Positions 6,241 through 47,801 of a stretch of 64,000 nucleotides of DNA are shown here, piece by piece. The DNA comes from an uncultured Porphyromonadaceae bacterium. GTDB taxonomy: Bacteria; Bacteroidota; Bacteroidia; Bacteroidales; Muribaculaceae. Each line of letters opens with the position of its first letter. Within the stretch, counting starts at the first letter, position 1. Location of the stretch: contig CAMHQD010000007.1 of assembly GCA_946187345.1 (NCBI GenBank), positions 9,514 to 73,513 of the forward strand, in the 5' to 3' direction. The position numbers and the translations under genes are program-made. Under the pieces are notes generated by a model. It did no database searches and was not told where the DNA came from. It saw only the letters and a list, made by a program, of their open reading frames with translations.

Positions 6241-6873
6241 ATGGCAAACTATAATGCCAGCGATGCCGTCACGCTTTATCCCGACGGTAAATACCGGTGG
6301 GTGTATGAGATGAACCTCTACACAAACCCAACGATTTTGTTCCTGGTGTTGAAGATTTTCTTTTGGATTTGCTTCGGCCTGTGGGTGTTCATGACGTTGC
6401 TCACGGCGTGCGAGTCGCGGCACTTTGTCGACGATTGGCTGAACATGAGCAAGTTCGCGCTAATCTTCACCGCCGGCTTCCTCGCTTTGGTCACAATCGG
6501 TTACTATTTCTACGCCTTGATAATGGGCGGCCGCTACTGTGTCCTCTTTGAGATGGACGACAAGGGCGTGCTGCACCAGCAGTTACTCAAGGATGTGAAG
6601 AAGGCCCACGTGCTCGCGGCGCTCACCTCGCTGACCGGCGCACTCAGAGGCAATCTCACCGCCACGGGAATCGGCCTCAATCTTGCCACGCGTACCCAGC
6701 AGTATAGCGACTTTGCCTCGGTGACCTCTGTGGAACTATATCGCAACCGTGGCTTAATCAAGGTGAACGCTCCGCTCAACTATAATCAAGTGTACGCCTC
6801 GCCTGCCGACTTTGACCGCGTCCTCAATCACATTCTGGCCCACATTCCAGCCACAGCCACCATCCACCGTTAG
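6241..6873 (+). CDS. Membrane protein, unknown function
   Basis: I chose the ATG at 6241 (MANYNASDAV...), downstream of the -7 box, over the track start at 6121. It has three hydrophobic helices followed by a soluble C-terminal domain. Confidence 0.55.
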   Translation: MANYNASDAVTLYPDGKYRWVYEMNLYTNPTILFLVLKIFFWICFGLWVFMTLLTACESRHFVDDWLNMSKFALIFTAGFLALVTIGYYFYALIMGGRYCVLFEMDDKGVLHQQLLKDVKKAHVLAALTSLTGALRGNLTATGIGLNLATRTQQYSDFASVTSVELYRNRGLIKVNAPLNYNQVYASPADFDRVLNHILAHIPATATIHR

Positions 6874-8072
6874 TCGCCGAGAAAGGCGAAGTGGGCAGGG
6901 ATGTCTCCGGTGCGCACTTGCCAGAGCAGCGTGCCGTCGCCCTTGAGGCAGTAGAGGGTGCCGGGGGTGACGTAGGAGCGGGCATCGGCGATGAGGATGT
7001 CGCCGGTGACGGGGTTGACGGCGATGCCGTAGGGTCGCTGAATGGCGTCTTCGGTGCCGTCGGTGATAAAGCCGTCGTTCACCACTTGCATTGTGGCGGT
7101 GTTGACGATGAGGTATCGCACGTCGCCGGCGGTGCGGTTCACCTCGCTCCACTGGCTGCTGACCACGTATAGCGAGTCGCCCCGCATGGCCATTGAGGCG
7201 ACGGGCACGTCAAGCGTGGCGACGATGCGGCGCTTGCGGGTGTCGTAGGCGTAGAGGCGTCCCGGCGTGTCGAGGTAGTCGCCACGCGAACTCACCCAGA
7301 GCACGCCGCGGTTGTCGCCGCGCACGCATTGCAGGTTGATGTCTATCTTGACGCGCTCAGTCTCGCGGAACGTGGCGAGGTCGATGACGCTAAGTGTGTT
7401 CTCATAGTTCGGCACCATGTATCCGCCCGAATTGGCGACGTAGATGCGGTCGCCCACGATTTCCAGTTCGTCGGGTTGGAATCCCACGATGCAGCGGTCG
7501 ACGACCTCAAGTGTGGCGGTGTCTACCTTGGCCACATATCCCAGTTGCTTGTAGTTCTCATCAATCTGGACGGGTCCGGCGTAACTGGTGACGTAGGCAT
7601 AGCGGCCGTGGAAGCGGATGTTGCGGCAGTTGGGAATGTCGATTTGTCCGATTTTGCGGACGCTCATGCGGTCCATCACGTCCACCTTGTTGCTGCAGTT
7701 GACCACGGCATAGAGGCGCGTGCCGTAGATGGCGAGGTCGTTGCCCACGTCGCCGAGTTCCTTGGGCACGTCGGGGTTGGCGAAGGCGAACACGTTGCGG
7801 GTGTACCGGCCGGAGGCGTAGTTGTAGTAGTCGATTGTGGCCTTGTTGGTGCCCATGTTACCCTCGTTGAGCAGGAAGAAGCCGCGCACGCTGGTGAGTT
7901 CGGGTCGTGCCACGTCGACGTGCTCGGGGATGAAGATGACATCGTCGTGGCGGCAGGAGACCGACAGCAGGCCTATCGCGAGGGCAGCCACGAGGTGGCT
8001 GCACAGCGAACGTAGGCCTATCGGTAAACGGTAAACGGTAAACGGTAAACCTTTCATTTTTAGAAGTCGCAT
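6870..8072 (-). CDS. BtuG-like surface lipoprotein (YncE/beta-propeller type), last gene of the B12 operon
   Basis: About 400 aa with a lipobox (LLSVSC). The sequence periodicity is typical of a beta-propeller (repeated hydrophobic-strand/Gly-Asp turns). It lies immediately downstream of btuB, as btuG does in Bacteroides. An alternative start at 8057 (MKGLPF...) avoids overlap with btuB. Confidence 0.6.
   Translation of the reverse strand: MRLLKMKGLPFTVYRLPIGLRSLCSHLVAALAIGLLSVSCRHDDVIFIPEHVDVARPELTSVRGFFLLNEGNMGTNKATIDYYNYASGRYTRNVFAFANPDVPKELGDVGNDLAIYGTRLYAVVNCSNKVDVMDRMSVRKIGQIDIPNCRNIRFHGRYAYVTSYAGPVQIDENYKQLGYVAKVDTATLEVVDRCIVGFQPDELEIVGDRIYVANSGGYMVPNYENTLSVIDLATFRETERVKIDINLQCVRGDNRGVLWVSSRGDYLDTPGRLYAYDTRKRRIVATLDVPVASMAMRGDSLYVVSSQWSEVNRTAGDVRYLIVNTATMQVVNDGFITDGTEDAIQRPYGIAVNPVTGDILIADARSYVTPGTLYCLKGDGTLLWQVRTGDIPAHFAFLGD
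8023..8050. repeat. Perfect heptanucleotide array (GGTAAAC)x4
   Basis: ggtaaacggtaaacggtaaacggtaaac. On the coding strand, (GTTTACC)4 encodes GLPFTVYRLP at the extreme 5' end of the BtuG-like ORF. Confidence 0.9.
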
Positions 8073-10123
8073 CGCAGGGTGATTTTGAAGTTGCGGCCGG
8101 GCATGGGGTAGTTTTGGATTACCTCATACTGCTGGTTGAAGATGTTGTTCACGGCGAGCGTCAGTCGCCAGTTGGCTTTCCACAACGCGTGTGAGGCGGT
8201 GAGCGCCAGGTCGTGGGTGTACCAGGGCTGCTCGTGGTTGGCGGGGATGTTGGCCGATGTGTGGTATCGCTCGCCCACGTAGACGAAACTGTAGTTCAAC
8301 TCGAGCCATCTCCACGCGGCGTGACCGAGCACACTGCCGTTGTGCCAAGGCACGTATGCGATTTGTCCGCCATAGGTGCCTCCATCGTGTGTGTCGGATG
8401 GATCGCTGCGGTCGCGCGCGCTCTGATAGGTGTAGTTGAGCGTGGCGTCGAGCGTCAGGTCGCGATGTGGCTTGACGGCGAGCATGGCGGTGAGGTCGAT
8501 GCCGGTGATGCGCACCCGGCCGATGTTCATCATCATCCAGCGGTACTGGCTGCTGCCGGTTGGCACGGCGATGATTTTGTCAGTGATGCGGTTATGGTAG
8601 GCGTCGGCGGTGAGTTTGACGGCGGTGATGCCGGTGGCGCCGGTTGTGGCGGCATACCATTGATACTGTGCTCCAACGTTCCACTGGGTGGCCATCTCGG
8701 GTCGCAGTGATGCGTTGCCGATGTCGGTGTAGTAGAGGTCGTTGAATGTGGGCATACGGAAGGCACGCTTGAAGAAGGCGCGCAGGGTGAGGTCGGCGGC
8801 GGTGGTGGGGCGGTAACTGATGATAACGGCGGGCGTGAAGCGGTCAAGGCGCTTGACGTGTGCCGCGACGAGTTCGTCGCCACGGCGGTTGCTGTAGCGG
8901 TCGGCCACGTGCGTCCATAGCAGGCTTGCCTGCGCCTTGAGGCCTCGCCAAGTGGCGGCGGTGGCCAGGGCGGTGAGCACGGTGTGGCGCGTGGGCCGAG
9001 CGAAGTTGGCCAGCGTGGCGTCGAGTGTGTTCCAGCGGTAGTCGACGGCTGCGCTGGCGTCCCAGCCGTCCCTCAGCGTGTATTTTGCCGCGCCGCTGGC
9101 GTATGCCTCCCACTGCGTGAAACGGTTGTCGACGTAGAGTAGGGTAGTGTCCGGGTTGAGGTATCGCATCCAGTCGCGTGCCACTTTGGCACTGACGAGC
9201 GTGGTGAGGCGTTCGGAGCATCGGTGCTGCCAGTTGCCTTGCAGGAAGGCGTTGCGGTCCCACTGTCGCTGGGCGTTGCGCCACACGTTATTGACGATGG
9301 CACCAGGTATGCCTCGCTCGCTGTCGTAATAGTAGCCTTGTGCGGTCCATCGTCCGCCTCGCTCGGTGCCGTGCAATGCGGCCTCGACGCGCAGTGCCTG
9401 CACATCGCCGTTGCGGCGCACGGCCGTTGTGTCCCACGCCAGAGTGCCGTCGCTGAAGCGCTTGCGGTATCTGAAGTGATATTTGCCGTGGGCACTCATC
9501 CACTCGGCGCTCGCACTGAGCGAGACTGCTTGCGAGAGGCGTTGCTCGAATCTCACGCTGGGGTTGAACAGGCCAAAGGAGCCGGTGCGCAGGGTGATGT
9601 TGACGTTGGTGCGTTTGCCCTCACGGAAGCGTGGCAGGCGTGACTGCAGGTAGATTGAGCCGCTGGTGCCGAAGTCGCGCGCGGGCTGGAGGATGTCGCT
9701 CTTTTGTCCGTTGTAGAGGTCGATAGCCTCGATATTGTCGAGCGAGAAGCGGCTGAGGTCGATTTGGCCGTTCTGGGCGTTGCCCAGTTCGAGACCGTCG
9801 TAGAACACGCCCATATGGTTGCTGCCCATCGAGCGCATATCCACGGTCTTGATGCCTCCCACGCCGCCGTAGTCCTTGAGTTGCACGCCACTGAAGTAGC
9901 GAATGGCGTCGGCCACGCTGCCGGTGCCGCCCAGCGTCTCGAGTTGCTTTCCCTCAAGACGTTGCGACGGGATGACTTCGGCGTATGGCTTGAAGGCTCG
10001 CACGACGACCTCCTCGAGATACACCGAGTCGAGTGTCTGGCCTCCCTCCTGCGCGAAGCAAAGCGCGAAGCAAGAAGCAAGAAACAAGAGGCAAGAAGTG
10101 CGAAGCAGAGAGTAGTGTCTCAT
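8060..10123 (-). CDS. btuB: TonB-dependent outer-membrane receptor, cobalamin type
   Basis: 687 aa with a signal peptide, a TonB-box-like LEEVVVRA, a plug domain (IRYFSGVQLKDYGGVGGIKTVDMRSMG) and a C-terminal barrel ending in an aromatic residue (LRCDF). It sits in an operon behind a cobalamin riboswitch. Confidence 0.8.
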   Translation of the reverse strand: MRHYSLLRTSCLLFLASCFALCFAQEGGQTLDSVYLEEVVVRAFKPYAEVIPSQRLEGKQLETLGGTGSVADAIRYFSGVQLKDYGGVGGIKTVDMRSMGSNHMGVFYDGLELGNAQNGQIDLSRFSLDNIEAIDLYNGQKSDILQPARDFGTSGSIYLQSRLPRFREGKRTNVNITLRTGSFGLFNPSVRFEQRLSQAVSLSASAEWMSAHGKYHFRYRKRFSDGTLAWDTTAVRRNGDVQALRVEAALHGTERGGRWTAQGYYYDSERGIPGAIVNNVWRNAQRQWDRNAFLQGNWQHRCSERLTTLVSAKVARDWMRYLNPDTTLLYVDNRFTQWEAYASGAAKYTLRDGWDASAAVDYRWNTLDATLANFARPTRHTVLTALATAATWRGLKAQASLLWTHVADRYSNRRGDELVAAHVKRLDRFTPAVIISYRPTTAADLTLRAFFKRAFRMPTFNDLYYTDIGNASLRPEMATQWNVGAQYQWYAATTGATGITAVKLTADAYHNRITDKIIAVPTGSSQYRWMMMNIGRVRITGIDLTAMLAVKPHRDLTLDATLNYTYQSARDRSDPSDTHDGGTYGGQIAYVPWHNGSVLGHAAWRWLELNYSFVYVGERYHTSANIPANHEQPWYTHDLALTASHALWKANWRLTLAVNNIFNQQYEVIQNYPMPGRNFKITLRCDF

Positions 10124-10162
10124 CTACTAATTGTTCTTAGAGTTCTAAGAATTCTAAGTGTT

Positions 10163-11383
10163 CTATGGAGTTTGGCTTCCGCCGTTGATGATGGTTTCTA
10201 ATATGGCGTTGACGTCGCCCACGTCGATGTTGCCATCGTGGTTGACGTCGGCGAGGGCAGTGACGCCGGGGTTGCCCAGACAGATGTCAAGCACGGCGTT
10301 GACGTCGCCCACGTCCACCTTGCGGTCGCCGTTAAGGTCGCCCTTGAGCCAGTCGAGCGGCGCGTCGGGGTGGAAGTCGCGTCCGCCGCGCACCTCGGTG
10401 GATGTCTCGCCAAGCGATGCCACCGTTTGGTTCATCGCGTTGTAGACTTTGATGAAGTCCACCCACGGGAGGTAAACCGCTTGTCCCTCGCTGTTGACAG
10501 CCCAACTGATGTCGAAGCCGTCGCTATAAATGCCCGGGTTGACCTCATCACCCTCACTGGCCTGGTCGCGGCTGGGCTTGTTGTCGACATATCCCCAGTC
10601 GAAGAATTGCAGTTCCACCATGCCGTTCACCGGCTTGACGTTGCCGCGCAGCCGTGCGCCGGAGAAGGTGAGCGTCTGCACGTCATCATCGAGCCATAGC
10701 GGCCAGTAGTCCTGCTTGTGGTACTCGAGTTTCTGGACGTAGCCGTTACGTTTCTTTGGGTTGTCGTCGTTGCTCTCCCATCGGATATACTGCGTGTCGT
10801 CAAACGGTCGGCTGCCGGGCACGGCCACGTGGTCGGCAGCCGGCTTAAAGTAGGTGATGGTGAAGTCGTGCTGGGTGCCCTCGTTGTCATACTCGCTGCC
10901 GGCGAGTTCAAACCACTCGTCGTCGGGGAGACCGTTGCCGTTGGCGTCGATGCTCACGAGGACGATGCCCGGCTCGGCGCTACCGCCGGTTGTGCTGCCG
11001 TCGGCCACAATAGCGTTGCCGTATATCTCGAAGTCGTATTCGCCCGGTACGTTCACAACAGGGTGGTCAAACGCCACGGTGACGCTGCCGCCGTATCCGC
11101 CCAGGCTGATTGTGCCCGGGCAGTAGGTGACAACGGTCTCGGTGACGACAGTGCCGTCAGGCAGTTCGCCCTCGATGGTCTCGGTTGTGCCGCAGATTGC
11201 CTCGGCTGCGCGGGCAAGCACTTTGCCGTAGGGGTCACCTGGGTTGCAGGCCGGTATCTGGTTGACAAACTGACCGGGCGCCGGAGCATAGTCCAGCACT
11301 CGGGTCAGGTAAGGCGCATGCTCCGTGGCGTGCGCCACGGAGCAAAGCGCGAAGAACGAAGTACAAAGTACGAACTTTTTCAT
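10163..11383 (-). CDS. Secreted protein with C-terminal dockerin-like double Ca-binding repeat
   Basis: 406 aa with a signal peptide. The C-terminus is GDLNGDRKVDVGDVNAVL...ADVNHDGNIDVGDVNAILETII, two DxNxDGxxDxxD loop-helix units as in type I dockerins. It is the second gene of the riboswitch-controlled operon. Confidence 0.7.
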   Translation of the reverse strand: MKKFVLCTSFFALCSVAHATEHAPYLTRVLDYAPAPGQFVNQIPACNPGDPYGKVLARAAEAICGTTETIEGELPDGTVVTETVVTYCPGTISLGGYGGSVTVAFDHPVVNVPGEYDFEIYGNAIVADGSTTGGSAEPGIVLVSIDANGNGLPDDEWFELAGSEYDNEGTQHDFTITYFKPAADHVAVPGSRPFDDTQYIRWESNDDNPKKRNGYVQKLEYHKQDYWPLWLDDDVQTLTFSGARLRGNVKPVNGMVELQFFDWGYVDNKPSRDQASEGDEVNPGIYSDGFDISWAVNSEGQAVYLPWVDFIKVYNAMNQTVASLGETSTEVRGGRDFHPDAPLDWLKGDLNGDRKVDVGDVNAVLDICLGNPGVTALADVNHDGNIDVGDVNAILETIINGGSQTP

Positions 11384-11451
11384 TTTCTTTCTGTTCTGAG
11401 AAATCCGATAGTTCTGATAGTTCTAAGATTTCTAAAGTACTGAACAAATAG

Positions 11452-11483
11452 CCCCCTCCAAAAGGAGGGGGTTGGGGGGAAGG
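11452..11483 (+). repeat. REP-1 copy, forward orientation
   Basis: gccccctccaaaaggagggggttggggggaaggg, just downstream of the stop of the 11495..12886 gene. Confidence 0.8.
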
Positions 11484-11494
11484 GCATTAGGACA

Positions 11495-12886
11495 TTAGTT
11501 AATCATAACCTTCTTGCCGGCACGGATGTAGATGCCGCGGCCGGGGTTGAGCACTCGGCGTCCCATCAGGTCGTAGGTGGGAGCGTCGCTGTCGTCGGCG
11601 TCGGCGTTGAGGTTGTCGATGCCGTTAACGGCGTCGACCGTGACGGTGAGGTCAACAAACTGGGTGTGGCCCTTTTGGGTGGCGCTCAGACGGACGGTGC
11701 CGCTCGCGCCGTTCTCCTTGCCGCTGACGACGATTTTGCTGCCCTCGAGGTTGACGTCCAGTCCGGCACTCGCCACAGGCTCCTCAATGGCAAAGGTGAC
11801 CATCGAGCCGTCGGCGTCAAGTTCAAAGAAATTGGCGGCCTTGTAGGTGCTCGGTCCCACGCCGGCGAGCACCTCGGCGGTGCCTGCCTCGGGCTCACCG
11901 CCCAGGTCGTCCATGGCGAAGTACATCGGCGTGTTCAGACCCCACGTCGGGTCGGCGTCGGTGCCGTCAAAGGTGAACGTGAGTTTTGTCACCTCGCCCA
12001 ATTCGCGCAGGTCAAACCACTCCCAGTCCTCAACGATGTAGCGGTCGATCTCTTTCTCGGCGCGGTAGTCGGCCAGATAGAAGTCCTTGGTAGTGGTGGT
12101 GCCGTCGGCGTGGTGGCCAACGGCGGTCACCTTAAACCAGTCGCCCTTGTTGGCCTTGGTGGAGAACTTGTTGCCGTTGACCATAGCGTTCTTGGCGTAG
12201 GCGGTGTTGGTGATATAGAAGCCGCTGATTACCTCGCCGGCCTCGTTGTTGGTCACCTCAATCTCGTTGGCGTCGCCGCCCCAGGGCACAGGGTTGGCGA
12301 TGACGAAGTTGTCGCCGCTGTGTGCGCCACCCATCACGCTGTTGAACTGGTCGGGATAGAGGTAAGAGAAGCCGCGCCACTGGTTGTCGGTGGTTGAGGC
12401 GAGGGCGTAGCCGTTCCATGTCCAATAGCCGTAGTCGACACCCTCGACGATATTGGGCGTGTAGTAACTGCCAACTTGCAGGCCGTAGGAGCCGCTGTAC
12501 CACTGCTCGAGGGCGGTGTAGCCCTGGTCGTAGTCATCGGCGGGCGAAGCGTTGTCGTCAAAGGTTGCCACGGCCTGGTCGCCACGCACCTTCACGCCGG
12601 TGCGCGCGCTCACGCTCTTGCCGTCCTCGTCGGTAATCGTGACCACATATCCGGTGGAGACTTTGGGCGCGACCATGAGTTGTCGGCCCACACCCACCTG
12701 GTCACCCTGCTGGTTGGTCCACACGATGGTCACCGTTTCGGTGCCGCCGGTCCAACTGACCTCGAGCGTGGTGTTCTGTCCGGCGTTAATCACAACGGGC
12801 TCCGGCGCTGTCACTGTCAGTTCGTCGGCCATTGCCGGCATGGCAACCATTGCCATGGCCAGCATCTTGATAGTAGTCTTTGTCAT
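11495..12886 (-). CDS. BtuH-like (DUF4465-type) putative corrinoid-binding protein with T9SS C-terminal sorting tail
   Basis: It is the first gene after the riboswitch. It has a signal peptide without a lipobox Cys, an Ig-like N-domain, a core with YGYWTWNGYALASTTDNQWRGFSYLYPDQFNSVMGG, and the C-terminus YDLMGRRVLNPGRGIYIRAGKKVMIN, typical of Bacteroidales T9SS type-A CTDs. The DUF4465/BtuH assignment comes from operon context and motif memory and was not searched. Confidence 0.65.
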   Translation of the reverse strand: MTKTTIKMLAMAMVAMPAMADELTVTAPEPVVINAGQNTTLEVSWTGGTETVTIVWTNQQGDQVGVGRQLMVAPKVSTGYVVTITDEDGKSVSARTGVKVRGDQAVATFDDNASPADDYDQGYTALEQWYSGSYGLQVGSYYTPNIVEGVDYGYWTWNGYALASTTDNQWRGFSYLYPDQFNSVMGGAHSGDNFVIANPVPWGGDANEIEVTNNEAGEVISGFYITNTAYAKNAMVNGNKFSTKANKGDWFKVTAVGHHADGTTTTKDFYLADYRAEKEIDRYIVEDWEWFDLRELGEVTKLTFTFDGTDADPTWGLNTPMYFAMDDLGGEPEAGTAEVLAGVGPSTYKAANFFELDADGSMVTFAIEEPVASAGLDVNLEGSKIVVSGKENGASGTVRLSATQKGHTQFVDLTVTVDAVNGIDNLNADADDSDAPTYDLMGRRVLNPGRGIYIRAGKKVMIN

Positions 12887-12930
12887 AAGCGTTTAATTTA
12901 TATGGTTTATATAGTGTTTATAGATAATAC

Positions 12931-12991
12931 AAAAAATCCACTCGATGCCCCAGGTCACGCAATGTGACCTCGCCCACGGGACACCGAGTGG
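12931..12991 (-). terminator. Intrinsic terminator/attenuator (expression platform of riboswitch 1)
   Basis: The minus strand reads ccactcggtg...catcgagtgg (10-bp stem enclosing a smaller hairpin) followed by attttttg. It lies between the aptamer and the start codon at 12886. Confidence 0.6.
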
Positions 12992-13039
12992 AAAAATCGG
13001 TTGCACGCTACATGCTACGTGCTACATGCTAAACAGCTG

Positions 13040-13320
13040 TATCTCCCGACCCTAATTCCACGAGGGTGCGATGAGCGTTACCACGTCGCGTTGACGTTGG
13101 AACGATGGCAGGCAGGTCTTCTGGCTTGTCCCTTGCTTCGGCGCCGCCTTCCCACTCTCTAACCGAGAGCAGTGACGTTTGATTAATTACGAAGTACTAT
13201 GTACTAAGTAATGCGCGTTGCAAGTTGTTGGCGATGCTTTGTACTTTGTACTTGCAATCAGCCGTGGGACTTACAGCAGCGGGTACTGCTCAGGAATTTC
13301 ACCTGATTCCCTAAACCTTG
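13040..13320 (-). promoter_or_regulatory. Cobalamin (B12) riboswitch 1
   Basis: The minus strand reads TAGGGAATCAGGTGAAATTCCTGAGCAGTACCCGCTGCTGTAAG ... GGGAAGG ... AAGCCAGAAGACCTGCCTGCC. These are the conserved cobalamin-aptamer core and the B12 box (plus-strand about 13108-13129). Confidence 0.85.
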
Positions 13321-13331
13321 CTATCACGGTG

Positions 13332-13339
13332 CAAAATTA
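13332..13339 (-). promoter_or_regulatory. Candidate -7 promoter box (TAATTTTG) for riboswitch 1 operon
   Basis: The reverse complement matches TAnnTTTG, about 15-20 nt upstream of the aptamer 5' end. The same arrangement is seen at riboswitch 2. Confidence 0.55.
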
Positions 13340-13562
13340 CAATTTTTTTACATCACAACCAACTATCTCACAGTTTTTTTTACTATTTAATTATTCTAAC
13401 TCTCACATTCAGTGGGGAAATCACCCCACAAACAAGTTTTTGGCAAAATAAGGAAAAAGTGAGAGCCGCCCGTCGCAGTTTCGACCGGGTGGCCCTCACA
13501 CTCTACAAAAACAAGTTGTTAGTTGTTCAGGTGTGGCGGGCACCGTCCCGCCACACAACACG

Positions 13563-16500
13563 CTACATTACCACTTTCTTGCCGGCGCGGACATAGATGC
13601 CCGGACCCGGGTTGACCACGCGGCGGCCCTGCAGGTCGTAGAGCGTGTTGTCGGCGTTGGTGTCGTCGTCAATGATGTCGGCGATGCCGGTGACGCTGTC
13701 GACGGTGACGCGCAGTCGCACGTACTGAGTGTGGCCTTTCTGCGTGGCGACAAGCACAACGTCGCGGCTGGCGCCGTCCACCTTGCCGTTCACCTCGATT
13801 TTGCCGGTTGTCGCGTTGTAACTCACATCGAGTTCATCGCTGCTCACCGGCTCCTCGAGCGAGATGGTGACAGTGGAGCCGTCGCCGTCGAGCGTAAAGT
13901 AACTTGCGGCGTCATACTTGCTGCGTCCCACGCCAACGGACACGCTGGCCGGCAGTTCGTCGCGCTGGCCGCCCAGGTTGTCCATGGCGAAGTACATCGG
14001 CGTGTTCAGGCCCCACTCGGGGTCGACGTCGCTGCCGTCAAAGGCGAACGTGAGTTTGGTCACCTCGCCCAGGTCGCGCAGGTCAAACCATTCCCACTTG
14101 TCGATGATGTAGCGGTCGACCTCCTTGTCGGCGCGGTAGTCGGCCAGATAGAAGTCCTTGCTTGTGGTAGTGCCGTCGGCGTGGTGGCCGATGGCCGTCA
14201 CCTTGAACCAGTCGCCCTTGTTGGCCTTGGTGGAGAACTTGTTGCCGGTGAGCATGGCGCTGACGGCGTAGGCGGTGTTGGTGATATAGAAGCCGCTCAC
14301 CGTCTCGCCCTGCTCGCTCGAGGTAACCTCAATCTCACAGGGGTTGCTGCCGTAGGGGACGGGGCAGGCGATGACGAAGTTGTCGGAACCGTCGTGTGCG
14401 CCTCCCATCACGCTGTTGAACTGGTCGGGATAGAGGTAAGAGAAGCCTCGCCACTGGTTGTCGGTGGTTGAGGCGAGGGCGTAGCCGTACCACGTCCAGT
14501 AGCCGTAGTCCACCTCGTCAACCATCACGGGAGTCCAGTAACTGCCCACCTGCAGGCCGTAGGAGCCGCTATACCACTGCTCCATGTCGCTGAAGCCCTG
14601 GTCGTAGCCCTCGGCGGGCGACAGGTTGTCGTCGAATGTGGCTTGTCCGCTCGCTCCGCGCACCTTCACGCCGGTTCGTGCGTGTGCCGTCTGTCCGTCG
14701 GCGCTCTCCACGGTGAGAACATAGCCGGTGGAAATCGACGGCGACACAGTGATTTGGTACTCCTCGCCTGCGGCGGTGGCAACGGTGTTGCCCATCTGGT
14801 CGGTCCACGTGACGGTGTAAGGCTCTGTGCCACCGGCCCAGATGCCGGTCAGGGTGGCGCTGCCACCGGCCTCGATGGTCACGGGGTCGTCAATCTCTAT
14901 GACGAGCGTTTCCACCTCGGCGGCCGCGGTGGTGAACGTTTCGCTCTCCACGATGTCGCTCTCCACGCCCTGCTCCGAGACCATAAGGAAGTAGGCCTTG
15001 TAAGCCGTTTCGGGCGATAGACCGTCAAACGTGGTGGTCACGTCGCTACCGGCGATGACGGCTTGCGGCGTGCCACTCTTGATGTCGGCGGCAGCCGGTG
15101 CCCTGTGTCGCGGTGCGCCTTGTGCCACCGGCTCCACGATGCTATAGAGTTGTCCCGCCTGGCTCCACCGGGTGACGAAAGAGGCCGTGGTGGCGGTCGC
15201 CTCGCCGCTGAGCGCGACGGGAGAGGCGACAAGAAGTTCGGGTTTGTCGGCGGTGAGTTCGCGATACTCGTAGGCGCCCACGGTGGGAGTATCGGCGTCG
15301 CGAGCCAGGCCGTCGTGGTCAACGGTGACGTAACTCACTGGCACGCCGCAGCGCAGGCCACCCTCGGCGGCCAAATGGTTGTCGGTGTCGCCGGCAAACG
15401 AGGCCTGCTCAACGGTGTTCACGCCGTGGACGGTGGTGTTGAACGTGTTGATGTCGCTCGTGGCGTTGGTCAGGCTGCCGCTCGTGTGGTAGAGCACATT
15501 GCCGGTTGCCGTGACGTTGTCGTAGCGGTTGCCGTAGATGAACAGCACCTCGCCGCTCTCGCCAAGGCCTTGCAGCAGGTTGCTCGTGAGTTTCAGGCCG
15601 GTGAACTGGCCGGCGCTGTTGAAACCGTAGAAGCAGCGTCCGAGGTTGCTCATGCGGATGGTGTTGAAGGCAAACTCAATGTTGGCGCACGTCGAGTGGT
15701 AATACACACCGTAACTCGACGCGCTGCTGCTGTTGACCACGATGCTGTTGTTGAACACGCGTGCCGGAGCGTCGGCCTGGGCCACGTTCTGCTGGCGCAG
15801 GTAGATGCCGTAACTATAGGCGCTGTTGGTGTTCACAATGGTGTTGCCCTCGATGACGAACTGGCCGTCGTTCTGCGTCATGTCGATGGCTGGGTAGCCG
15901 CTTTGGGTGGTCGAGGTCTGGGTGATGGTGTTGCCCTTTATGAGGGCGTCGCTTGTCATGTTCACATAGATGCCGATGCGTCCGGTCTCGCTGACGGTAT
16001 TGCCGCTGACGACGGGGCGCTGAGCCTTGCTGTCACTGACACTGCCGTATTTGAAGTTGACGCCGATGCGTCCGCCTTGCAGGGTGTTACCCTCGATGAC
16101 AACGTCGTCACAGGCCTTGCCGTCGCCGGTGGACTGGACAGTCACGAGGCAGATGCCCGTGGTGGCGGTGGCCTGGTCGGCCTTCACGAGCGAGCCGCGC
16201 AGGGTGAAGTGGTGGCTGCCGTCGACGGCTCGCACGCCGTGGCTGAAACTTTGTGAGGCGGGAATGATGCTCACGTTCTCGAATGTCACCCACGGGGTGC
16301 CCGAGACGAGCACCACCTGTGAGGTCGCGCCGTAACTCGTGTCGGGCGAGCCTCCGGCGAGCACCACGGCGTTGCGGTTACCGCTCTGTGAGGTGAAGGT
16401 CACATTGTGGGTCTCACCGGTGCCGGCGATGTCGGCGATGGTGATGTTTTCGGCATAGGTGCCGTCCTCAATCTCGAAACGCACGGCGCCCTCGACACCC

Positions 16501-19500
16501 ACCTGCATTGCTTGGATTGCGGCGGCGAAGGTGGGGTAGTCGGCCCGGTCGCTCGCGCCGATGACGTAGTCGCCCTTGAAACCGGCCTTGACGACACGCG
16601 TGGCCTCGGTGCTCTCCACAGCGGCCTCGGCATTGAGGCTGTTGAAAATCGCGCTGACGGTGCTGCCCGGCTCGGCGTCGGCATCCACGTCGACAGCCAG
16701 CCACAAGTAGTAAGTTCCTTTCGAATTGATGGTGAGCGGCTCGGCGGCGGTGAAAGTGACGTCGCCCGTGCCGGTGACGGTGGCAGCCAACTGCTCGTTG
16801 GTGGAGAAGGCTTCGGTTGTGCCGGTGTAGAACAAGCGTGCCGCGGTGGCGCTGCCACCGACGGTGAACGCGAAGTCGTTGAGGCTGACCTCGCCGTTGT
16901 CGCCCTCGATGGTGAGCGCGACCTTGACGAGCGGGGCATTGCTGCTGCCGCGCACCACCTCATCGGTGGCGGCCGCGGTTGCCGTGACTGCTGTCAGGGT
17001 GTTGGGGGCGTACTCGTGCAGTTTGACCTCGATGGCCCAGCCACTGGTGGGCGTACTGTAGGTGCCGCTCTTGAAGTATACCGTCAGCGTGCCGTCGGCG
17101 GCCTCGGAGATGACATCCACCGGGCCGGTGGTGCCGCTATAGACGCCCACACGGTCGGTCGTGCCGTTGTGCTCGCGGCCGTTGTAGACGTAGAAGTAGT
17201 TGCTCGTGGTGCCGGTGGCATATTCCACGGCGTTCAACTCGATGCCGTAGCCCGCAACGGCGGGAACAAACGTCACCGCGCCTTCAAAGCCCTTTGAGAA
17301 GTTGCCGTCGGCACCGCCGTCGTCGTAGAACATCAGCGGCTGGCTGACGACGACCGTGTTGTCGCCGCTCTGCATGACATACATCGCCTTGGCGACGCGC
17401 TCGCCGGTGGGGTCGCCGTTTGTCACGGTAGTCGCCTCGCCATCAATGATGAGCGCCGTCACGGCGGCGTCGATGGCCGTCTCGGGAGTGCCGTCGCTCT
17501 TGACGTCGACGGTAACATAGAAGTTGTTGGCTCCTTCGGCCAAAGTGAGGTCGCCGGTGACGGTCACTTCGCCGCTTGCGGGATTGGCAACCGTGCCAAA
17601 GAGCGTGGCATTGTCGCGCGAGGTCTCATAGCCGGTGTAATAGACGTTGATGGCGCTCAGCGCTTCGCCGCCCTTGACGTTGAGTTTCACGCCACCGAGT
17701 TGCATCGTGCTGAGTGTGCCCTCGGTGGTGACGGCAAAGTCAATCAGGTCGGCGCCCTCGCTGCCCAGCGGCACGATGTCGCTGCTGGTCTGGTTGACGG
17801 TGACCGCCTCGACGGTCATCGCGTGGTTGATGAAGGGACGCACTGCGGCGCTCCATCCCGCGCGGGCGTAGTAAGAGCTGGCATCCTTGGGGTCGAAGCG
17901 CACGGTCAGCGAGCCATCGGCGGCCGTCGAGCGCAGCACGCGTCCGGGGCCGGTGGTGGCCCGGTCGGCGTCGCTCAGTCTCCACAGCAGGTTCGCCTCG
18001 TTGACTGCGCTACCGCTATATACCTCAAAGAGAGCCTTTACACCATAGGAAGAACTGCTGTAGGCCACGTCGAAACTGTCGAAGTTCAACTCAACGACCG
18101 CGCCGTCCACCTTGGGATAGAAGGTGACGATGTGGTCGCCGGTGGTGGCGTCGTACTTGCCGCCGGAGCCTTCCTCATCGGTAAAGGTCCACTCGCCGTA
18201 GATGTTATGGCTGTGGGTGCCGGCAGTCAGGCGGCAGATGTTCTCGACGGTGAGCGTCGCGCTCACCGTGGTGGCCAAGGCCTGCACGGTGCCGGCGACG
18301 GTGACGTTGCTAACGCCCAGGGTCACCTCATCGTTGTTGTTGAGGCGCTCGTTCACATCGACGACGATGGCGAAATAGTTGTGTCCTTCACCCAGAGTGG
18401 TGTTGCCGGTGGCGGTGACGGTGTTGCCGCTCACCTCGCCCGTGGCAAAGGTCGTTGCGGTCGAGAACACGTTTTTCGGGCCGAGATAGTAGATGGTGTA
18501 GCCGTCGATGGCGCCGGGTGTGGCGGCGTTGAGCGTCATACCGGTGACGGAAAGCGGGTTGGACTGGTTGTCGGTGAGCACATCAACGACGAGCAGACGC
18601 GCGCCGCGCTCACCGGCGGCCACAGTCGCGGCGGCTCCCTCATCGGCCGCGGCGGTGACCTCCTTGAAGGTCATGTCGCCCGGCAGGAACTGGCTCACGG
18701 TGGCCTCCCAGCCGTCGGCCGGCACGCCGGTGGTGCTCACCAGGGTGACGGTCATCGAGCCGTCGGCGGCCGTGCTCTTGACGGTCTCGGCCTCGGTGAG
18801 CAGCGTGGTAATCAGGTTGTCCTCGTTAGCCTCGCGGCCGTTGTAGAACTTGAGGATATCATTCTTGCCAACAGAGGAGGTGTTGAAGATGGCCAACTTG
18901 GAGAAGTCCACCTTGATGGCGTTGCCGGCGGTGGCTGGCACAAAGGTGACCGTGCCGGTAAAGTTGCTGCCAATCTTGCCGTCCTTGCCACCGTCGTCAT
19001 AGAAAGCGACATCATCGCCAATGGTGAACGTGGTGGCCGTGGCCGGCATGAGGATGACGTTGTCGATGGTGAGCGCGCCGCCGGTGGCGGGAGCGGCACT
19101 GCGGGCCGTGCCGTCCACGGTGACGCTCTTGATGGCGAGCGCGGGCAGGGTGCCCGTGGCGTCGGGGTTAAGGCGGCCGACAACGGTGAACACATTGTTG
19201 CCACCCTTGAGGGTGAGGCCACTCGCGATGAGGTCGCTGCCCACGGTGGCCGCTGTGGCCAGCAGGTCGCCCGAGGCGGTCCCGCCGCGATAGAGGCGCA
19301 CGTCGCTCACCTGGTTGTTGCCCTTCAACGCGCTGCAATCAATAGTGAGATTGTTGAGCGTCAACGGGTTGCCGCCACCATCGGTGACGACGTTGCATTG
19401 GAAAAGCGGCACGTCTGCGGCGCCGCGCGTGGCGTGGGGCAGTTCGGCGATGGCGCCGGTGCTCACATATTCCATGTCTTTGGGAGACATCGACGTGACG

Positions 19501-20003
19501 GTGATGTTAAACCCCGTCTGACCATTGGCGCCTTTGCTGTGGAAGCCGAACGACAGTTTGCCGTCGGCGCTGGTCGAGGTGTAGGTCTCGCCGGCACTGG
19601 TCGAGTTATACCATTTTACAAAGCCGTCAGGCAAGTAATTGGACTGGCCCTGGTTGCCACCCGTGCCGTAACCGATTTTCTCAATCGCTCCGTCATAGAG
19701 GAGCAGGTAGTTGGTGGTGCCGTCCAGGTCGATGCTGTTGACGGTGATGGTGATGATTTCCCCCTCGTTGGCAGGCGAGAAAACGACGCCGCAGTCGCGC
19801 CATGTGGGGATTGTGCTACCTTCGGCTGCCGCCTTGAAGGTGATTGTCCCGTCGACGGTGTACTGCTCAAGCCCGTCATTGGTCTTGAGCAGGAAAGCGT
19901 TCTCGCTGTCGCTCCACGCGCGCCGCGGTCCGTCGGCATGGGCGGGCAGGGTAGCGCTCAGGAGCATCACCGTGAGGACAACAAACAATTTGTAAAGCCT
20001 CAT
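13563..20003 (-). CDS. Giant (2146 aa) secreted multidomain protein: 4x (CUB-like + beta-sandwich) modules, parallel beta-helix, FN3, BtuH-like module, T9SS CTD
   Basis: Uninterrupted ATG ORF with a signal peptide (MRLYKLFVVLTVMLLSATLPAHA). Four modules share the pattern VTF.P..G..I...F...Y.G...STAADGS.TV.F...GW.A.V. PbH1-like repeats (GNTLQGG.., VSGNTVSE.., IKGNTITQ.., IEGNTIVN.., FNNSIVVN..) lie at about nt 15450-16420. The last ~460 aa are paralogous to the 11495..12886 protein and end in LYDLQGRRVVNPGPGIYVRAGKKVVM. Confidence 0.85.
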   Translation of the reverse strand: MRLYKLFVVLTVMLLSATLPAHADGPRRAWSDSENAFLLKTNDGLEQYTVDGTITFKAAAEGSTIPTWRDCGVVFSPANEGEIITITVNSIDLDGTTNYLLLYDGAIEKIGYGTGGNQGQSNYLPDGFVKWYNSTSAGETYTSTSADGKLSFGFHSKGANGQTGFNITVTSMSPKDMEYVSTGAIAELPHATRGAADVPLFQCNVVTDGGGNPLTLNNLTIDCSALKGNNQVSDVRLYRGGTASGDLLATAATVGSDLIASGLTLKGGNNVFTVVGRLNPDATGTLPALAIKSVTVDGTARSAAPATGGALTIDNVILMPATATTFTIGDDVAFYDDGGKDGKIGSNFTGTVTFVPATAGNAIKVDFSKLAIFNTSSVGKNDILKFYNGREANEDNLITTLLTEAETVKSTAADGSMTVTLVSTTGVPADGWEATVSQFLPGDMTFKEVTAAADEGAAATVAAGERGARLLVVDVLTDNQSNPLSVTGMTLNAATPGAIDGYTIYYLGPKNVFSTATTFATGEVSGNTVTATGNTTLGEGHNYFAIVVDVNERLNNNDEVTLGVSNVTVAGTVQALATTVSATLTVENICRLTAGTHSHNIYGEWTFTDEEGSGGKYDATTGDHIVTFYPKVDGAVVELNFDSFDVAYSSSSYGVKALFEVYSGSAVNEANLLWRLSDADRATTGPGRVLRSTAADGSLTVRFDPKDASSYYARAGWSAAVRPFINHAMTVEAVTVNQTSSDIVPLGSEGADLIDFAVTTEGTLSTMQLGGVKLNVKGGEALSAINVYYTGYETSRDNATLFGTVANPASGEVTVTGDLTLAEGANNFYVTVDVKSDGTPETAIDAAVTALIIDGEATTVTNGDPTGERVAKAMYVMQSGDNTVVVSQPLMFYDDGGADGNFSKGFEGAVTFVPAVAGYGIELNAVEYATGTTSNYFYVYNGREHNGTTDRVGVYSGTTGPVDVISEAADGTLTVYFKSGTYSTPTSGWAIEVKLHEYAPNTLTAVTATAAATDEVVRGSSNAPLVKVALTIEGDNGEVSLNDFAFTVGGSATAARLFYTGTTEAFSTNEQLAATVTGTGDVTFTAAEPLTINSKGTYYLWLAVDVDADAEPGSTVSAIFNSLNAEAAVESTEATRVVKAGFKGDYVIGASDRADYPTFAAAIQAMQVGVEGAVRFEIEDGTYAENITIADIAGTGETHNVTFTSQSGNRNAVVLAGGSPDTSYGATSQVVLVSGTPWVTFENVSIIPASQSFSHGVRAVDGSHHFTLRGSLVKADQATATTGICLVTVQSTGDGKACDDVVIEGNTLQGGRIGVNFKYGSVSDSKAQRPVVSGNTVSETGRIGIYVNMTSDALIKGNTITQTSTTQSGYPAIDMTQNDGQFVIEGNTIVNTNSAYSYGIYLRQQNVAQADAPARVFNNSIVVNSSSASSYGVYYHSTCANIEFAFNTIRMSNLGRCFYGFNSAGQFTGLKLTSNLLQGLGESGEVLFIYGNRYDNVTATGNVLYHTSGSLTNATSDINTFNTTVHGVNTVEQASFAGDTDNHLAAEGGLRCGVPVSYVTVDHDGLARDADTPTVGAYEYRELTADKPELLVASPVALSGEATATTASFVTRWSQAGQLYSIVEPVAQGAPRHRAPAAADIKSGTPQAVIAGSDVTTTFDGLSPETAYKAYFLMVSEQGVESDIVESETFTTAAAEVETLVIEIDDPVTIEAGGSATLTGIWAGGTEPYTVTWTDQMGNTVATAAGEEYQITVSPSISTGYVLTVESADGQTAHARTGVKVRGASGQATFDDNLSPAEGYDQGFSDMEQWYSGSYGLQVGSYWTPVMVDEVDYGYWTWYGYALASTTDNQWRGFSYLYPDQFNSVMGGAHDGSDNFVIACPVPYGSNPCEIEVTSSEQGETVSGFYITNTAYAVSAMLTGNKFSTKANKGDWFKVTAIGHHADGTTTSKDFYLADYRADKEVDRYIIDKWEWFDLRDLGEVTKLTFAFDGSDVDPEWGLNTPMYFAMDNLGGQRDELPASVSVGVGRSKYDAASYFTLDGDGSTVTISLEEPVSSDELDVSYNATTGKIEVNGKVDGASRDVVLVATQKGHTQYVRLRVTVDSVTGIADIIDDDTNADNTLYDLQGRRVVNPGPGIYVRAGKKVVM

Positions 20004-20029
20004 GTTGCTAATAAAGGTTTGTTAAACAA

Positions 20030-20096
20030 TAAATAAAAATTCCACATCACACCACGGGCTTTTTGACGGCACACTGCCGACCCGGTGATGATGCGG
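20030..20096 (-). terminator. Intrinsic terminator/attenuator (expression platform of riboswitch 2)
   Basis: On the minus strand, catcatcaccggg...cccgtggtgtgatg forms a stem followed by gaatttttattt, about 30-40 nt before the start codon at 20003. Confidence 0.5.
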
Positions 20097-20129
20097 AAAG
20101 CGCTACACTGATTGTCTAATCAAACCCGA

Positions 20130-20470
20130 TGCCATTCCATGAATCGCTACCTGCTACCTGCTACATGCTACAAGCTATGGAATGTATCTCAGTGTCCCTA
20201 ATGCCGCGAGGGATCAACGAGCCTGCCATGCCGTCATGGCGCATGGCACAACAGCAGGCAGGTCTTCTGGCTTGTCCCCTTGCGTTGGCGCGGCCTTCCC
20301 ACCCGTTCCTAAACTCGGGCAGTGGCGAAATTAGTACTAAATACTAATTAATGCGCTCCGCAAGTGATTGCCGATGCTTCGTACTTTGTATGTGGTACTT
20401 CGTACTTGCTATCAGCGTGGGACTTACAGCAGCGGGTACTGCTCAGGATTTGCACCTGATTCCCTATTAT
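20130..20470 (-). promoter_or_regulatory. Cobalamin (B12) riboswitch 2
   Basis: The minus strand reads GGGAATCAGGTGCAAATCCTGAGCAGTACCCGCTGCTGTAAG ... GGGAAGG ... AAGCCAGAAGACCTGCCTGC (B12 box at plus-strand about 20256-20273). It is collinear with riboswitch 1. Confidence 0.85.
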
Positions 20471-20508
20471 GGGTTGCCGTGTGGCAACCCCACCTTGCTA
20501 TCACGCTG

Positions 20509-20516
20509 CAAAATTA
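20509..20516 (-). promoter_or_regulatory. Candidate -7 promoter box (TAATTTTG) for riboswitch 2
   Basis: It has the same sequence and context (gctatcacgCTGCAAAATTAca) as the box upstream of riboswitch 1. Confidence 0.55.
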
Positions 20517-20792: not shown

Positions 20793-20848
20793 CTACATGC
20801 TACATGCTACGTGCTACGTGCTACGTGCAACGTGCTACATGCAACGTG
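20793..20848. repeat. Heptanucleotide array (GCTACRT)n
   Basis: ctacatgctacatgctacgtgctacgtgctacgtgcaacgtgctacatgcaacgtgctac, abutting the rng stop codon. Shorter versions occur in both riboswitch leaders (about 13005-13036 and 20145-20180). Confidence 0.85.
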
Positions 20849-24773: not shown

Positions 24774-25019
24774 CACACTGATTGTGGAAACGACATTAAG
24801 AAACTGCTGAGTCATCCACCATAACTAATGCATGATTAAGCCATTGTGTCGCCATCTGCCGCGGCTCCGTGCCGTGTGTCGCAGCCGGTGGTGTGCAATG
24901 CTGATTTTGCTGAATAGCAGCGAGGTGTGTGGCTCTGAAGTTTCAACTGTCAGTTCCGCGACGGATATTAGTTCAGTTGAAATTTTATTCAATAATCATA
25001 GTAAAAATTATCAGTGCTT

Positions 25020-28379: not shown

Positions 28380-28387
28380 GATATAAA

Positions 28388-28455
28388 AGGTTTACCGTCG
28401 ACCGTTCTCCGTTTACCGAAACGTAAACGCAACGGTCAACGGTAAACGGGAAACT
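28388..28455. repeat. TTTACCG-hairpin family, full copy in the susC-susD spacer
   Basis: aggtttaccgtcgaccgttctccgtttaccgaaacgtaaacgcaacggtcaacggtaaacgggaaac fills most of the 99-nt susC-susD intergenic gap. Confidence 0.8.
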
Positions 28456-28478
28456 ATAATAATCAGTCAAGAACAATC

Positions 28479-30218: not shown

Positions 30219-30275
30219 TAGAGGATTGCTTATTCGCAAAATTCGCATTAATTCGCAAAATTCGCATTTCATATT

Positions 30276-31412: not shown

Positions 31413-31422
31413 TAAAATAAAA

Positions 31423-31616
31423 GGTTTACCGTTGACCGTTTACCGTTGACCGAAACGTAAACGCAACGGTCAACGGTCAACGATAAACTTCTAACACCGT
31501 TTAACGTTACCGAAACGTAAACGCAACGGTCAACGGTCAACGGTAAACTTCTAACATCGTTTAACGTTACCGAAACGTAAACGCAACGGTCAACGGTCAA
31601 CGGTAAACGGTAAACT
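31423..31616. repeat. Three tandem copies (60-bp period) of the TTTACCG-hairpin element
   Basis: ...taccgaaacgtaaacgcaacggtcaacggtcaacgRtaaac occurs three times (31441-31500, 31501-31560, 31561-31616). The array ends 18 nt before the ATG at 31634. Confidence 0.9.
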
Positions 31617-31633
31617 TTTCACAAACTAAGACA

Positions 31634-39418: not shown

Positions 39419-39490
39419 AGGTCGCAAGCGGACTCGAACCGCTGTACCTGGTTTTGCAGACCAGTGACTAAACCACTCATCCATGCGACC
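39419..39490 (-). tRNA. tRNA-Cys (GCA)
   Basis: The reverse complement is GGTCGCATGGATGAGTGGTTTAGTCACTGGTCTGCAAAACCAGGTACAGCGGTTCGAGTCCGCTTGCGACCT. It has a 7-bp acceptor stem, a 5-bp anticodon stem with loop CTGCAAA, a T-arm CAGCGG-TTCGAGT-CCGCTT and no encoded CCA. Confidence 0.9.
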
Positions 39491-40892: not shown

Positions 40893-40947
40893 CAATTTAA
40901 TTCATAATTCATAATGCACAATGCATAATTATAATGCCGTTTGCATC

Positions 40948-47706: not shown

Positions 47707-47801
47707 GATTGTTGTTAACTTTCTTGTGTAAGTTATTAATAATCACTCTGCAACATTCACAAGCCACACGTTCTTCTTGCCAGAGGTTGCCAAAGCGACT
47801 G

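Follow-up and report, generated by a model that had tools for sequence, protein, structure and literature searches.

Competition for B12 and other corrinoids shapes gut and rumen communities, and current models of corrinoid uptake rest on the small lipoproteins BtuG, BtuH, BtuJ and BtuK from one Bacteroides species. The DUF4465 proteins are BtuJ, represented in Bacteroides thetaiotaomicron by BtuJ1 (BT1491) and BtuJ2 (BT1957), and BtuH (BT1956) is a distinct family (10.1101/2025.07.01.662609; PMC13398666; PMC12751083; PMC13616437). DUF4465 proteins of eight clades bind B12 (PMC13398666), and BtuJ1, exposed at the cell surface, passes B12 on to BtuG2 and BtuH2 in vitro (10.1101/2025.07.01.662609). 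In BtuJ1 the corrin is contacted by two tyrosines, one from the DE helix (Y146) and one from the HI loop MNTPSY (Y245) (10.1101/2025.07.01.662609; PMC13398666), and the HI-loop motif has been defined as (M/L)NTPxY (PMC13398666; PMC12751083). Here we describe a gene for a giant protein of the same family (2146 amino acids, aa), preceded by a cobalamin riboswitch, in a 64,000-nucleotide (nt) stretch of contig CAMHQD010000007.1 (the window) from an uncultured Muribaculaceae bacterium (GenBank assembly GCA_946187345.1).

The giant protein has a domain homologous to the jelly-roll of BtuJ1 and BtuJ2 (DUF4465/IPR027828; structures 9FCT, 9QPM, 9HMU and 4JQR) and shares with them the HI-loop NTPxY tyrosine, the DE-helix tyrosine, an N-terminal signal peptide, a B12-riboswitch-controlled unit next to btuB and btuG, and the occurrence of a paralog pair per genome. 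BtuJ1 and BtuJ2 are, however, single-domain lipoproteins of ~250 aa, whereas the giant protein has no lipobox and adds a 1650-aa arm (CUB, sandwich, beta-helix and FN3-like domains), flanking Ig-like domains and a C-terminal tail. Its gene is also, in most species, a standalone riboswitch-gene unit away from btuB/btuG. BtuH2 (BT1956, 7BIZ) is alike in kind, being a surface-exposed accessory B12-binding protein of the riboswitch-controlled Bacteroidetes btu loci, but its domain is unrelated to DUF4465. Closer in layout are DUF4465 proteins that end in a C-terminal sorting domain (CTD) of the type IX secretion system (T9SS) and have no lipid anchor, as do many orthologs of the giant protein (PF18962). 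The T9SS CTD occurs in 229 of 824 DUF4465 proteins (PMC12751083), but the tail of the window protein was not recognised as a CTD and that survey makes no mention of the giant CUB/beta-helix architecture.

Several parts of this system were therefore already known: B12 binding by BtuJ/DUF4465, riboswitch control of btu loci, the combination of DUF4465 with a T9SS CTD, and bacterial CUB repeats. New relative to the searchable literature are the giant conserved architecture and its standalone riboswitch unit across >100 Bacteroidales species; no description of the giant protein was found in the literature on T9SS with cobalamin riboswitches or on Muribaculaceae with BtuB. Muribaculaceae are a dominant, poorly studied gut and rumen family, and they carry this riboswitch-controlled 230-kDa BtuJ fusion as a conserved trait. 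It is of value chiefly as a lead to the way in which Muribaculaceae and their relatives reach corrinoid sources.

A giant BtuJ-family gene with its own riboswitch

An earlier note on this DNA, made from the sequence alone, had reported a 6.4-kb uninterrupted open reading frame (ORF) behind a complete leader with a -7 box, a cobalamin aptamer and a terminator hairpin. Both parts were borne out. The gene is a single uninterrupted frame of 2146 aa (13563..20003, minus strand), and the leader holds the box TAATTTTG, an RF00174 match of 81 bits and a hairpin followed by a U-tract. Features of the unit, all on the minus strand, are:

20516-20509 (-), Bacteroidetes-type -7 promoter box TAATTTTG, a predicted promoter by direct reading
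20240..20513 (-), cobalamin riboswitch aptamer RF00174 of the giant gene (cmscan, 81 bits, E = 2.3e-18)
20028..20098 (-), terminator-like expression platform, hairpin 20098-20040 and U-tract 20039-20028 (RNAfold)
19935..20003 (-), signal peptide of signal peptidase I (SPase I) type, residues 1-23, MRLYKLFVVLTVMLLSATLPAHA with DG after the cleavage point, assigned by inspection of the translation
16584..19865 (-), four tandem units of CUB plus sialidase-N-terminal-like (BNR_assoc_N) beta-sandwich, residues 47-1140 (profiles, Pfam, model); by family profiles, CUB copies 1-4 at residues 47-180, 325-447, 598-732 and 883-1005, sandwich copies 1-4 at residues 182-316, 448-589, 733-871 and 1005-1140
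18663-19031 (-), CUB2, more conserved than any other part of the protein
15324..16583 (-), right-handed parallel beta-helix, residues ~1141-1560 (Pfam, TIGR03804 repeat, AlphaFold)
14934..15251 (-), FN3-like beta-sandwich, residues ~1585-1690 (Pfam fn3 E = 0.11; model)
14634..14912 (-), Ig-like domain, residues 1698-1790, start of the cassette common with the 463-aa paralog (BLASTP start; Pfam Ig)
13968..14606 (-), DUF4465/BtuJ-type domain, predicted to be a corrinoid-binding jelly-roll, residues 1800-2012 (PF14717)
13566..13967 (-), post-DUF4465 domain, residues 2013-2100, and short C-terminal tail (...TLYDLQGRRVVNPGPGIYVRAGKKVVM), a putative sorting/anchoring signal
13454..13556 (-), two hairpins 3' of the stop codon (RNAfold and sequence)

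With moderate confidence, we propose that the product of this gene is a B12-repressed, Sec-exported and probably surface-displayed giant corrinoid binder of the BtuJ (DUF4465) family, whose arm would serve docking or reaching.

The DUF4465 domain carries the family assignment. PF14717 (cut-off 25 bits) scored 162.9 bits with E = 1.2e-47 over profile positions 4-176 of 176, and the PDB sequence matches of the domain were 9hmu (E = 2e-18), 4jqr, 9qpm and 9fct, with E-values from 1e-13 to 2e-18. In the phmmer alignment to 9fct_B, Y1912 aligned to BtuJ1 Y146 and Y2004 (LNTPMYF) to BtuJ1 Y245, and both tyrosines were nearly invariant among orthologs. By homology, the B12 module of the giant protein is BtuJ-type (DUF4465/PF14717). 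The earlier note had called it BtuH-like and grouped BtuH with DUF4465; only the DUF4465 half of that statement stands. The PDB sequence search returned DUF4465 structures and no BtuH, which rules out a BtuH identity, and the actual BtuH homolog (7BIZ) is the adjacent 406-aa ORF. The paralogy claimed for the C-terminal ~460 aa was accurate. Residues 1698-2146 share 66% identity, along 449 aa, with the mature form of the neighbouring 463-aa protein (BLASTP), and a recount of the hand-aligned core gave exactly the same result, 36 differences and 168 identities in 204 positions. Pfam Ig matches to the Ig-like domain that opens this cassette were weak (E = 0.01-0.04). As read from the translations, the signal peptides of the giant protein and of its short paralog both lack a lipobox cysteine.

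The aptamer spans the full model (positions 1-189 of 189, gathering score 31.5) and ends 237 nt before the ATG. The leader hairpin (20098-20040) has a predicted dG of -31 kcal/mol (z = -4.8), with none of 200 shuffled sequences as stable, and it abuts the U-tract AAUUUUUAUUUAUU ~25 nt before the ATG. A simple terminator scanner left it unflagged because of its long branched loop, and direct folding revealed it. The same was done for the 3' end of the gene, where the scanner flagged nothing and RNAfold placed the second hairpin at 13499-13459, followed by a T-run at 13458-13454, as the giant gene's own terminator. Since promoter box, riboswitch leader and post-stop hairpin with T-run are all present around the ORF, the giant gene looks like a self-contained unit. 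The leader also has a paralog in the window. From promoter box to terminator the two leaders share 77% identity along their full length, and the TAATTTTG box and its downstream sequence are kept at 13339-13332 in the second one, where the homologous hairpin is more stable (dG -37.8, z = -6.3).

Conservation of the riboswitch-gene unit

A search with the N-terminal 1683 aa retrieved >120 full-length homologs of 2040-2190 aa that were 39-96% identical and had the same domain order. These came from independent assemblies, which rules out an assembly chimera or an interrupted ORF, the two artefacts that the earlier note had wanted checked. An exact copy of the window protein was absent from the contig index; the closest relative, at 96% identity, is the P0001 cluster (MBQ9466425.1). 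Where databases name such relatives, they do so as 'DUF4465 domain-containing protein [Muribaculaceae bacterium]'. In a species-representative genome collection, relatives occurred at no fewer than 114 loci (species-level genomes), the nearest to the window being a goat-rumen Muribaculaceae metagenome-assembled genome (MAG) at 93% (L005). Carriers were mostly rumen and gut Muribaculaceae and Sodaliphilus MAGs, and also included the isolate Dysgonomonas sp. BGC7, Paludibacter, Marinilabiliaceae and a soil Bacteroidetes. Should the arm have a docking or enzymatic role, this single gene with its single riboswitch, present in carriers that can be cultured (Dysgonomonas sp. BGC7, for example), would offer a handle on B12 acquisition in Bacteroidales other than Bacteroides.

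Neighbourhoods were counted at 80 retained loci of the 114. The earlier note had proposed a survey of related genomes for synteny of riboswitch and giant gene, and a cobalamin riboswitch lay upstream on the same strand in 78/80 loci by riboswitch profile; the other two have <200 nt of upstream sequence. At ~73 loci the riboswitch was followed directly by a standalone giant gene in otherwise unrelated neighbourhoods, and the riboswitch is therefore the gene's only constant partner. Two loci had the order riboswitch-btuB-btuG-btuH-giant gene, and at three another gene or fragment stood between riboswitch and giant gene. DUF4465 was present in all of the complete orthologs at the retained loci (67/67). 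The linkage of riboswitch and gene is the defining conserved feature of the giant-protein family.

One locus has the system split. At L004 (ENA ERZ27257293 k141_7176, 6436-19527), a single riboswitch-led operon encodes BtuB, BtuG, the 1982-aa homolog P0081, a BtuH homolog with a weak CTD, and a 765-aa DUF4465-FN3-CTD protein. P0081 is an arm protein without DUF4465 and with a canonical T9SS CTD. Because it shares the riboswitch-btuB-btuG operon with a separate DUF4465 protein, this case ties the arm itself to B12 uptake.

The N-terminal arm

The four repeats of a CUB-like and beta-sandwich pair described in the earlier note were recovered by phmmer, family profiles, Pfam and AlphaFold/Foldseek. 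Segment-wise phmmer resolved a fourfold repeat of ~275 aa per unit, which was needed as a BLASTP self-comparison found no internal repeats. BNR_assoc_N (PF14873) scored 82.8 bits against a cut-off of 25 over two stretches, and the family profile found four copies. Pfam CUB (PF00431) scored 24.3 bits for the whole protein against a cut-off of 21.4 and 20.7 bits for the isolated CUB2, and 21/23 orthologous CUB2 modules matched it at E < 0.01. The AlphaFold model of unit 2 (predicted local distance difference test score, pLDDT, of 92) resembled in Foldseek the CUB domains of TSG-6, NRP2 and C1r (target-normalised template modelling score, TM, of 0.75-0.82). Its second domain matched the N-terminal domains of the Bacteroidales sialidases 6myv, 4q6k and 4fj6, and the best two-domain match was neuropilin a2b1. 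Across 118 homologs CUB2 was 64-76% identical to the window protein, as against 26-48% for DUF4465. The module has no cysteine at all, its acidic residues in the FYDDGG, ND and DGS motifs are invariant, and the position of the canonical Ca2+-site glutamate appears replaced, as read from a hand comparison. Pfam, profile and Foldseek searches found no known B12-binding fold or motif in the arm.

A profile of CUB2 matched 2095 proteins among 1.84 billion cluster representatives, including poly-CUB proteins with up to 29 copies (the 29-copy protein has 6578 aa). Examples of ~1090 aa (such as P0164, P0187 and P0197) have eight CUB domains, a Por_Secre_tail and no B12 domain; the CUB2 profile hit them at E = 1e-78 to 1e-97, and Pfam CUB is found there at E = 1e-40 to 1e-48. 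Poly-CUB T9SS surface proteins thus share the bacterial CUB module family with the giant protein but differ in having tandem CUBs that do not alternate with sandwiches, and in having no DUF4465, beta-helix or known B12 link. One member of the bacterial CUB-repeat family also carries DUF6531, and the family as a whole appears little studied.

The earlier note had drawn a loose parallel to cubilin, the host B12 receptor. Cubilin CUB5-8 in complex with intrinsic factor-cobalamin (3KQ4) has the CUB fold in common with the giant protein, whose CUB2 is without cysteines, and the resemblance is generic. We rejected a specific relationship: only the fold is shared, with 3KQ4 at rank 22 in the Foldseek list among many CUB proteins. 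Because these modules are members of a CUB-repeat family that is widespread in bacteria, occurs in many non-B12 proteins and gives no specific link to recognition of a B12 carrier, the parallel is a coincidence of fold.

Residues 1141-1700 were modelled at pLDDT 90 as a right-handed beta-helix followed by an FN3-like sandwich. The beta-helix, proposed earlier as PbH1-type, was supported by this model and by PF13229, which scored 40.8-44.9 bits (cut-off 25.9). Its best Foldseek neighbours were GH136 lacto-N-biosidases (TM ~0.5, 13% identity), followed by phage tailspikes/depolymerases, pectin methylesterases and alginate epimerases. When PDB sequences were searched with a profile of the beta-helix and FN3 region, no solved enzyme was matched, GH136 included, and the likeness to GH136 is one of fold, so membership in that family was rejected. 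Polar residues D1374, R1403, N1418, N1419 and Y1396 of the beta-helix were invariant. As for the FN3 domain, the fold is FN3-like, with matches to CDO FN3 domains at a target-normalised TM of 0.5-0.6 (Foldseek of the model), and the sequence match to Pfam fn3 is weak.

The C-terminal tail

Orthologs varied at the position of the tail. P0072 has a canonical CTD (Por_Secre_tail, 49.2 bits), P0002 (64% identical) has a CTD-like tail below threshold (18.1 bits against 23), and others have other short tails or a dockerin directly after DUF4465. Since canonical CTDs, CTD-like tails, short tails and dockerins all occur there, the position appears from these comparisons to behave as a swappable sorting or anchoring module. 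Such swapping suggests that the anchoring systems which display B12-capture proteins differ between lineages.

Proposed function and alternatives

The earlier note had read the protein as a secreted or surface-tethered corrinoid-scavenging scaffold. Riboswitch control and the joining of a B12 module to adhesin- or enzyme-like domains survive from that reading, now with a predicted signal peptide added, while the BtuH label does not. In the mechanism that we favour, high intracellular cobalamin would be bound by the aptamer and the downstream hairpin and U-tract would then end transcription; when cobalamin is scarce, a 6.4-kb monocistronic mRNA would be made. The predicted SPase I signal peptide would direct export of the product, not as a lipoprotein, unlike BtuJ1 and BtuJ2 of B. 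thetaiotaomicron. The C-terminal tail, a short variant unrecognised by models, would carry the protein across the outer membrane or fix it there. By extension from BtuJ1 biochemistry, the membrane-proximal cassette (Ig-like domain, DUF4465 and second sandwich) would bind corrinoids through the conserved BtuJ pocket and pass them to BtuH and to the BtuG-BtuB complex of the adjacent riboswitch-led operon. The 1650-aa arm, judging from its fold types and strong conservation, may project from the anchor and dock to or reach corrinoid sources that bear glycans or protein. If the arm does dock, or acts as an enzyme, it would add a step to corrinoid acquisition in which the source is reached or opened.

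Several observations weigh against this proposal. A crude comparative scan found the hairpin plus U-tract in 36/75 related leaders, so the regulatory mechanism, transcriptional or translational, may vary, a matter that the scan is too crude to settle. The 'T9SS-style' tail of the earlier note was not supported: at E <= 10, TIGR04183 and PF18962 matched neither the whole protein nor its C-terminal 101 or 135 residues, and the giant protein's tail reached E = 1.1 with a CTD profile made from the canonical tails of 29 orthologs. With all CTD models and the custom profile negative, we do not call the protein T9SS-tailed. Pfam also found no T9SS component in 17 ORFs of the window, ~20 other long ORFs not having been scanned. 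As no T9SS model recognises the tail and no T9SS genes were identified in the window, surface anchoring is something that we infer. The CUB modules derive from a generic bacterial CUB-repeat family and are not specific to B12 loci; because the CUB2 profile finds many poly-CUB proteins without a B12 domain, the module is, as far as these matches tell, a generic building block of bacterial surface proteins. Finally, the beta-helix most resembles glycosidases, esterases and tailspikes, and with structural neighbours that are mostly enzymes or tailspikes an enzymatic role is possible.

A speculative and on balance doubtful version of the docking proposal makes the arm the targeting device of a contact-dependent B12 'pirate', a fibre of ~230 kDa that under B12 starvation would dock to glycosylated carriers (salivary or gastric haptocorrin, intrinsic factor) or to the envelopes of corrinoid-producing microbes. 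Were this true, the source would be brought close to the BtuJ pocket near the membrane and to the BtuG-BtuB importer, and CUB2 would owe its extreme conservation to a ligand or partner that is itself conserved. It is unlikely, though still worth setting beside that version, that the protein is instead a released scavenger (a 'corrinophore') which, by analogy with hemophores, would capture corrinoids at a distance, free or on vesicles, and be recaptured at BtuG/BtuB, the arm mediating re-binding to the producer's own surface glycans or vesicles. The lack of a recognisable T9SS CTD and of a lipobox fits release, as does the action of B. thetaiotaomicron BtuJ proteins on extracellular vesicles beyond the cell surface (PMC12751083; PMC13616437). 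However, the canonical CTDs and dockerins that orthologs have at the tail position are both anchoring devices, and the sequence indicates no release or cleavage site.

The arm could also be primarily enzymatic, the beta-helix acting as a glycosidase, lyase or esterase that has the CUB and sandwich modules for its carbohydrate-binding modules, such that glycans would be stripped from corrinoid carriers or producer envelopes and DUF4465 would capture the freed cofactor. We regard this as quite improbable. The structural neighbours of the beta-helix (GH136 lacto-N-biosidases, pectin methylesterases, alginate epimerases and phage depolymerases), the five invariant polar residues named above and the likeness of the sandwiches to sialidase N-terminal domains all point that way, but the TM of only ~0.5 comes with 13% identity, the profile search gave no sequence-level match to solved enzymes, catalytic residues could not be mapped, and beta-helices are also common in non-catalytic adhesins. 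Least probable among the readings is a multi-site reservoir, in which conserved CUB modules would be extra corrinoid sites of a high-capacity surface store. BtuJ1 has been proposed as a surface reservoir (10.1101/2025.07.01.662609), and CUB2 is indeed more conserved than DUF4465; yet near relatives of these modules are found in many poly-CUB T9SS proteins without B12 context, and the searches of the arm detected no known B12-binding fold or motif.

The neighbouring btu operon

Downstream of the giant gene lies a second riboswitch-led operon, and the local order is riboswitch, giant btuJ fusion, terminator, riboswitch, short btuJ, btuH (with dockerin), btuB and btuG. Its features are:

13094-13378 (-), second cobalamin riboswitch, leading the short btuJ-btuH-btuB-btuG operon (cmscan, 63.5 bits, full-length)
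11495..12886 (-), short BtuJ paralog, 463 aa (PF14717 E = 8e-48)
10163..11383 (-), BtuH homolog, 406 aa, with a C-terminal type-I dockerin pair (PDB sequence matches)
8060..10123 (-), BtuB-like TonB-dependent receptor, 687 aa (Pfam Plug and TonB_dep_Rec_b-barrel)
6870..8072 (-), BtuG-like beta-propeller lipoprotein, 400 aa, DUF5074 (PF16819)

The short BtuJ consists of a signal peptide, an Ig-like domain, DUF4465, the post-domain and the same tail as the giant protein. The BtuH homolog matched 7biz (BtuH2) at E = 2.9e-40 and 8blw_B (BtuGH) at E = 3.4e-50, and its dockerin matched 2y3n_B at E = 3e-5. For the BtuB-like receptor the best NCBIfam match was TIGR01779 (TonB-B12), under its cut-off. 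The BtuG-like protein matched the PDB BtuG entries 8ptf and 8blw at E = 2e-38 and has a visible lipobox, SVSC.

When aligned to the leader of the giant gene, the second riboswitch is without the first hairpin (GGGGUUGCC...GGCAACCC), and in its place Rfam pairs AT-rich sequence upstream of the shared TAATTTTG box. If that box is the promoter, the second aptamer would be short of one stem, and its function may therefore differ. Both expression platforms also contain a short tandem repeat, GTAGCAnGTAGC, which occurs eight times at three sites in the window against a chance expectation of 0.02. The sites, all on the minus strand and all non-coding, are 13007-13025, 20146-20171 and 20799-20824, the third being a stretch just after the RNase G stop codon.

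Comparison of loci L005, L006 and L007 gave an uneven pattern of identity between the two btuJ genes. The short BtuJ is about 66-67% identical to the giant cassette of its own genome in the window and 72% in the L007 lineage, whereas between the two lineages the giant cassettes share only 44% identity. Together with the 77% leader identity, these values suggest concerted evolution or repeated duplication of short and giant btuJ.

Paired type-I dockerin repeats (DVNxDGxVDVGDVN...) end three proteins in the 64 kb: the BtuH homolog (10163-11383, -), a 681-aa ORF without any Pfam match (33320-35365, +) and a 489-aa ORF (40921-42390, +). Because these three proteins and some orthologs of the giant protein end in dockerins, a cohesin-dockerin surface-display system is suggested in these rumen Muribaculaceae.

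Other features of the window

On the plus strand, genes for a SusC/SusD-like pair, a Peptidase_Mx1 metallopeptidase and a DUF4302 protein lie in that order at 25014-33097, and a second TonB-dependent receptor with CarboxypepD_reg and Plug domains lies at 35539-37977. Judged by their domains, the SusC/SusD-like region and this receptor may form a protein- or glycan-uptake locus. The minus strand carries a tRNA (39419-39490), a 557-aa protein of the Endonuclease_1 family (45492-47165) and an L19-Flavobacteria ribosomal leader (47751-47789, 34.8 bits), which are ordinary context and consistent with a Bacteroidota chromosome.

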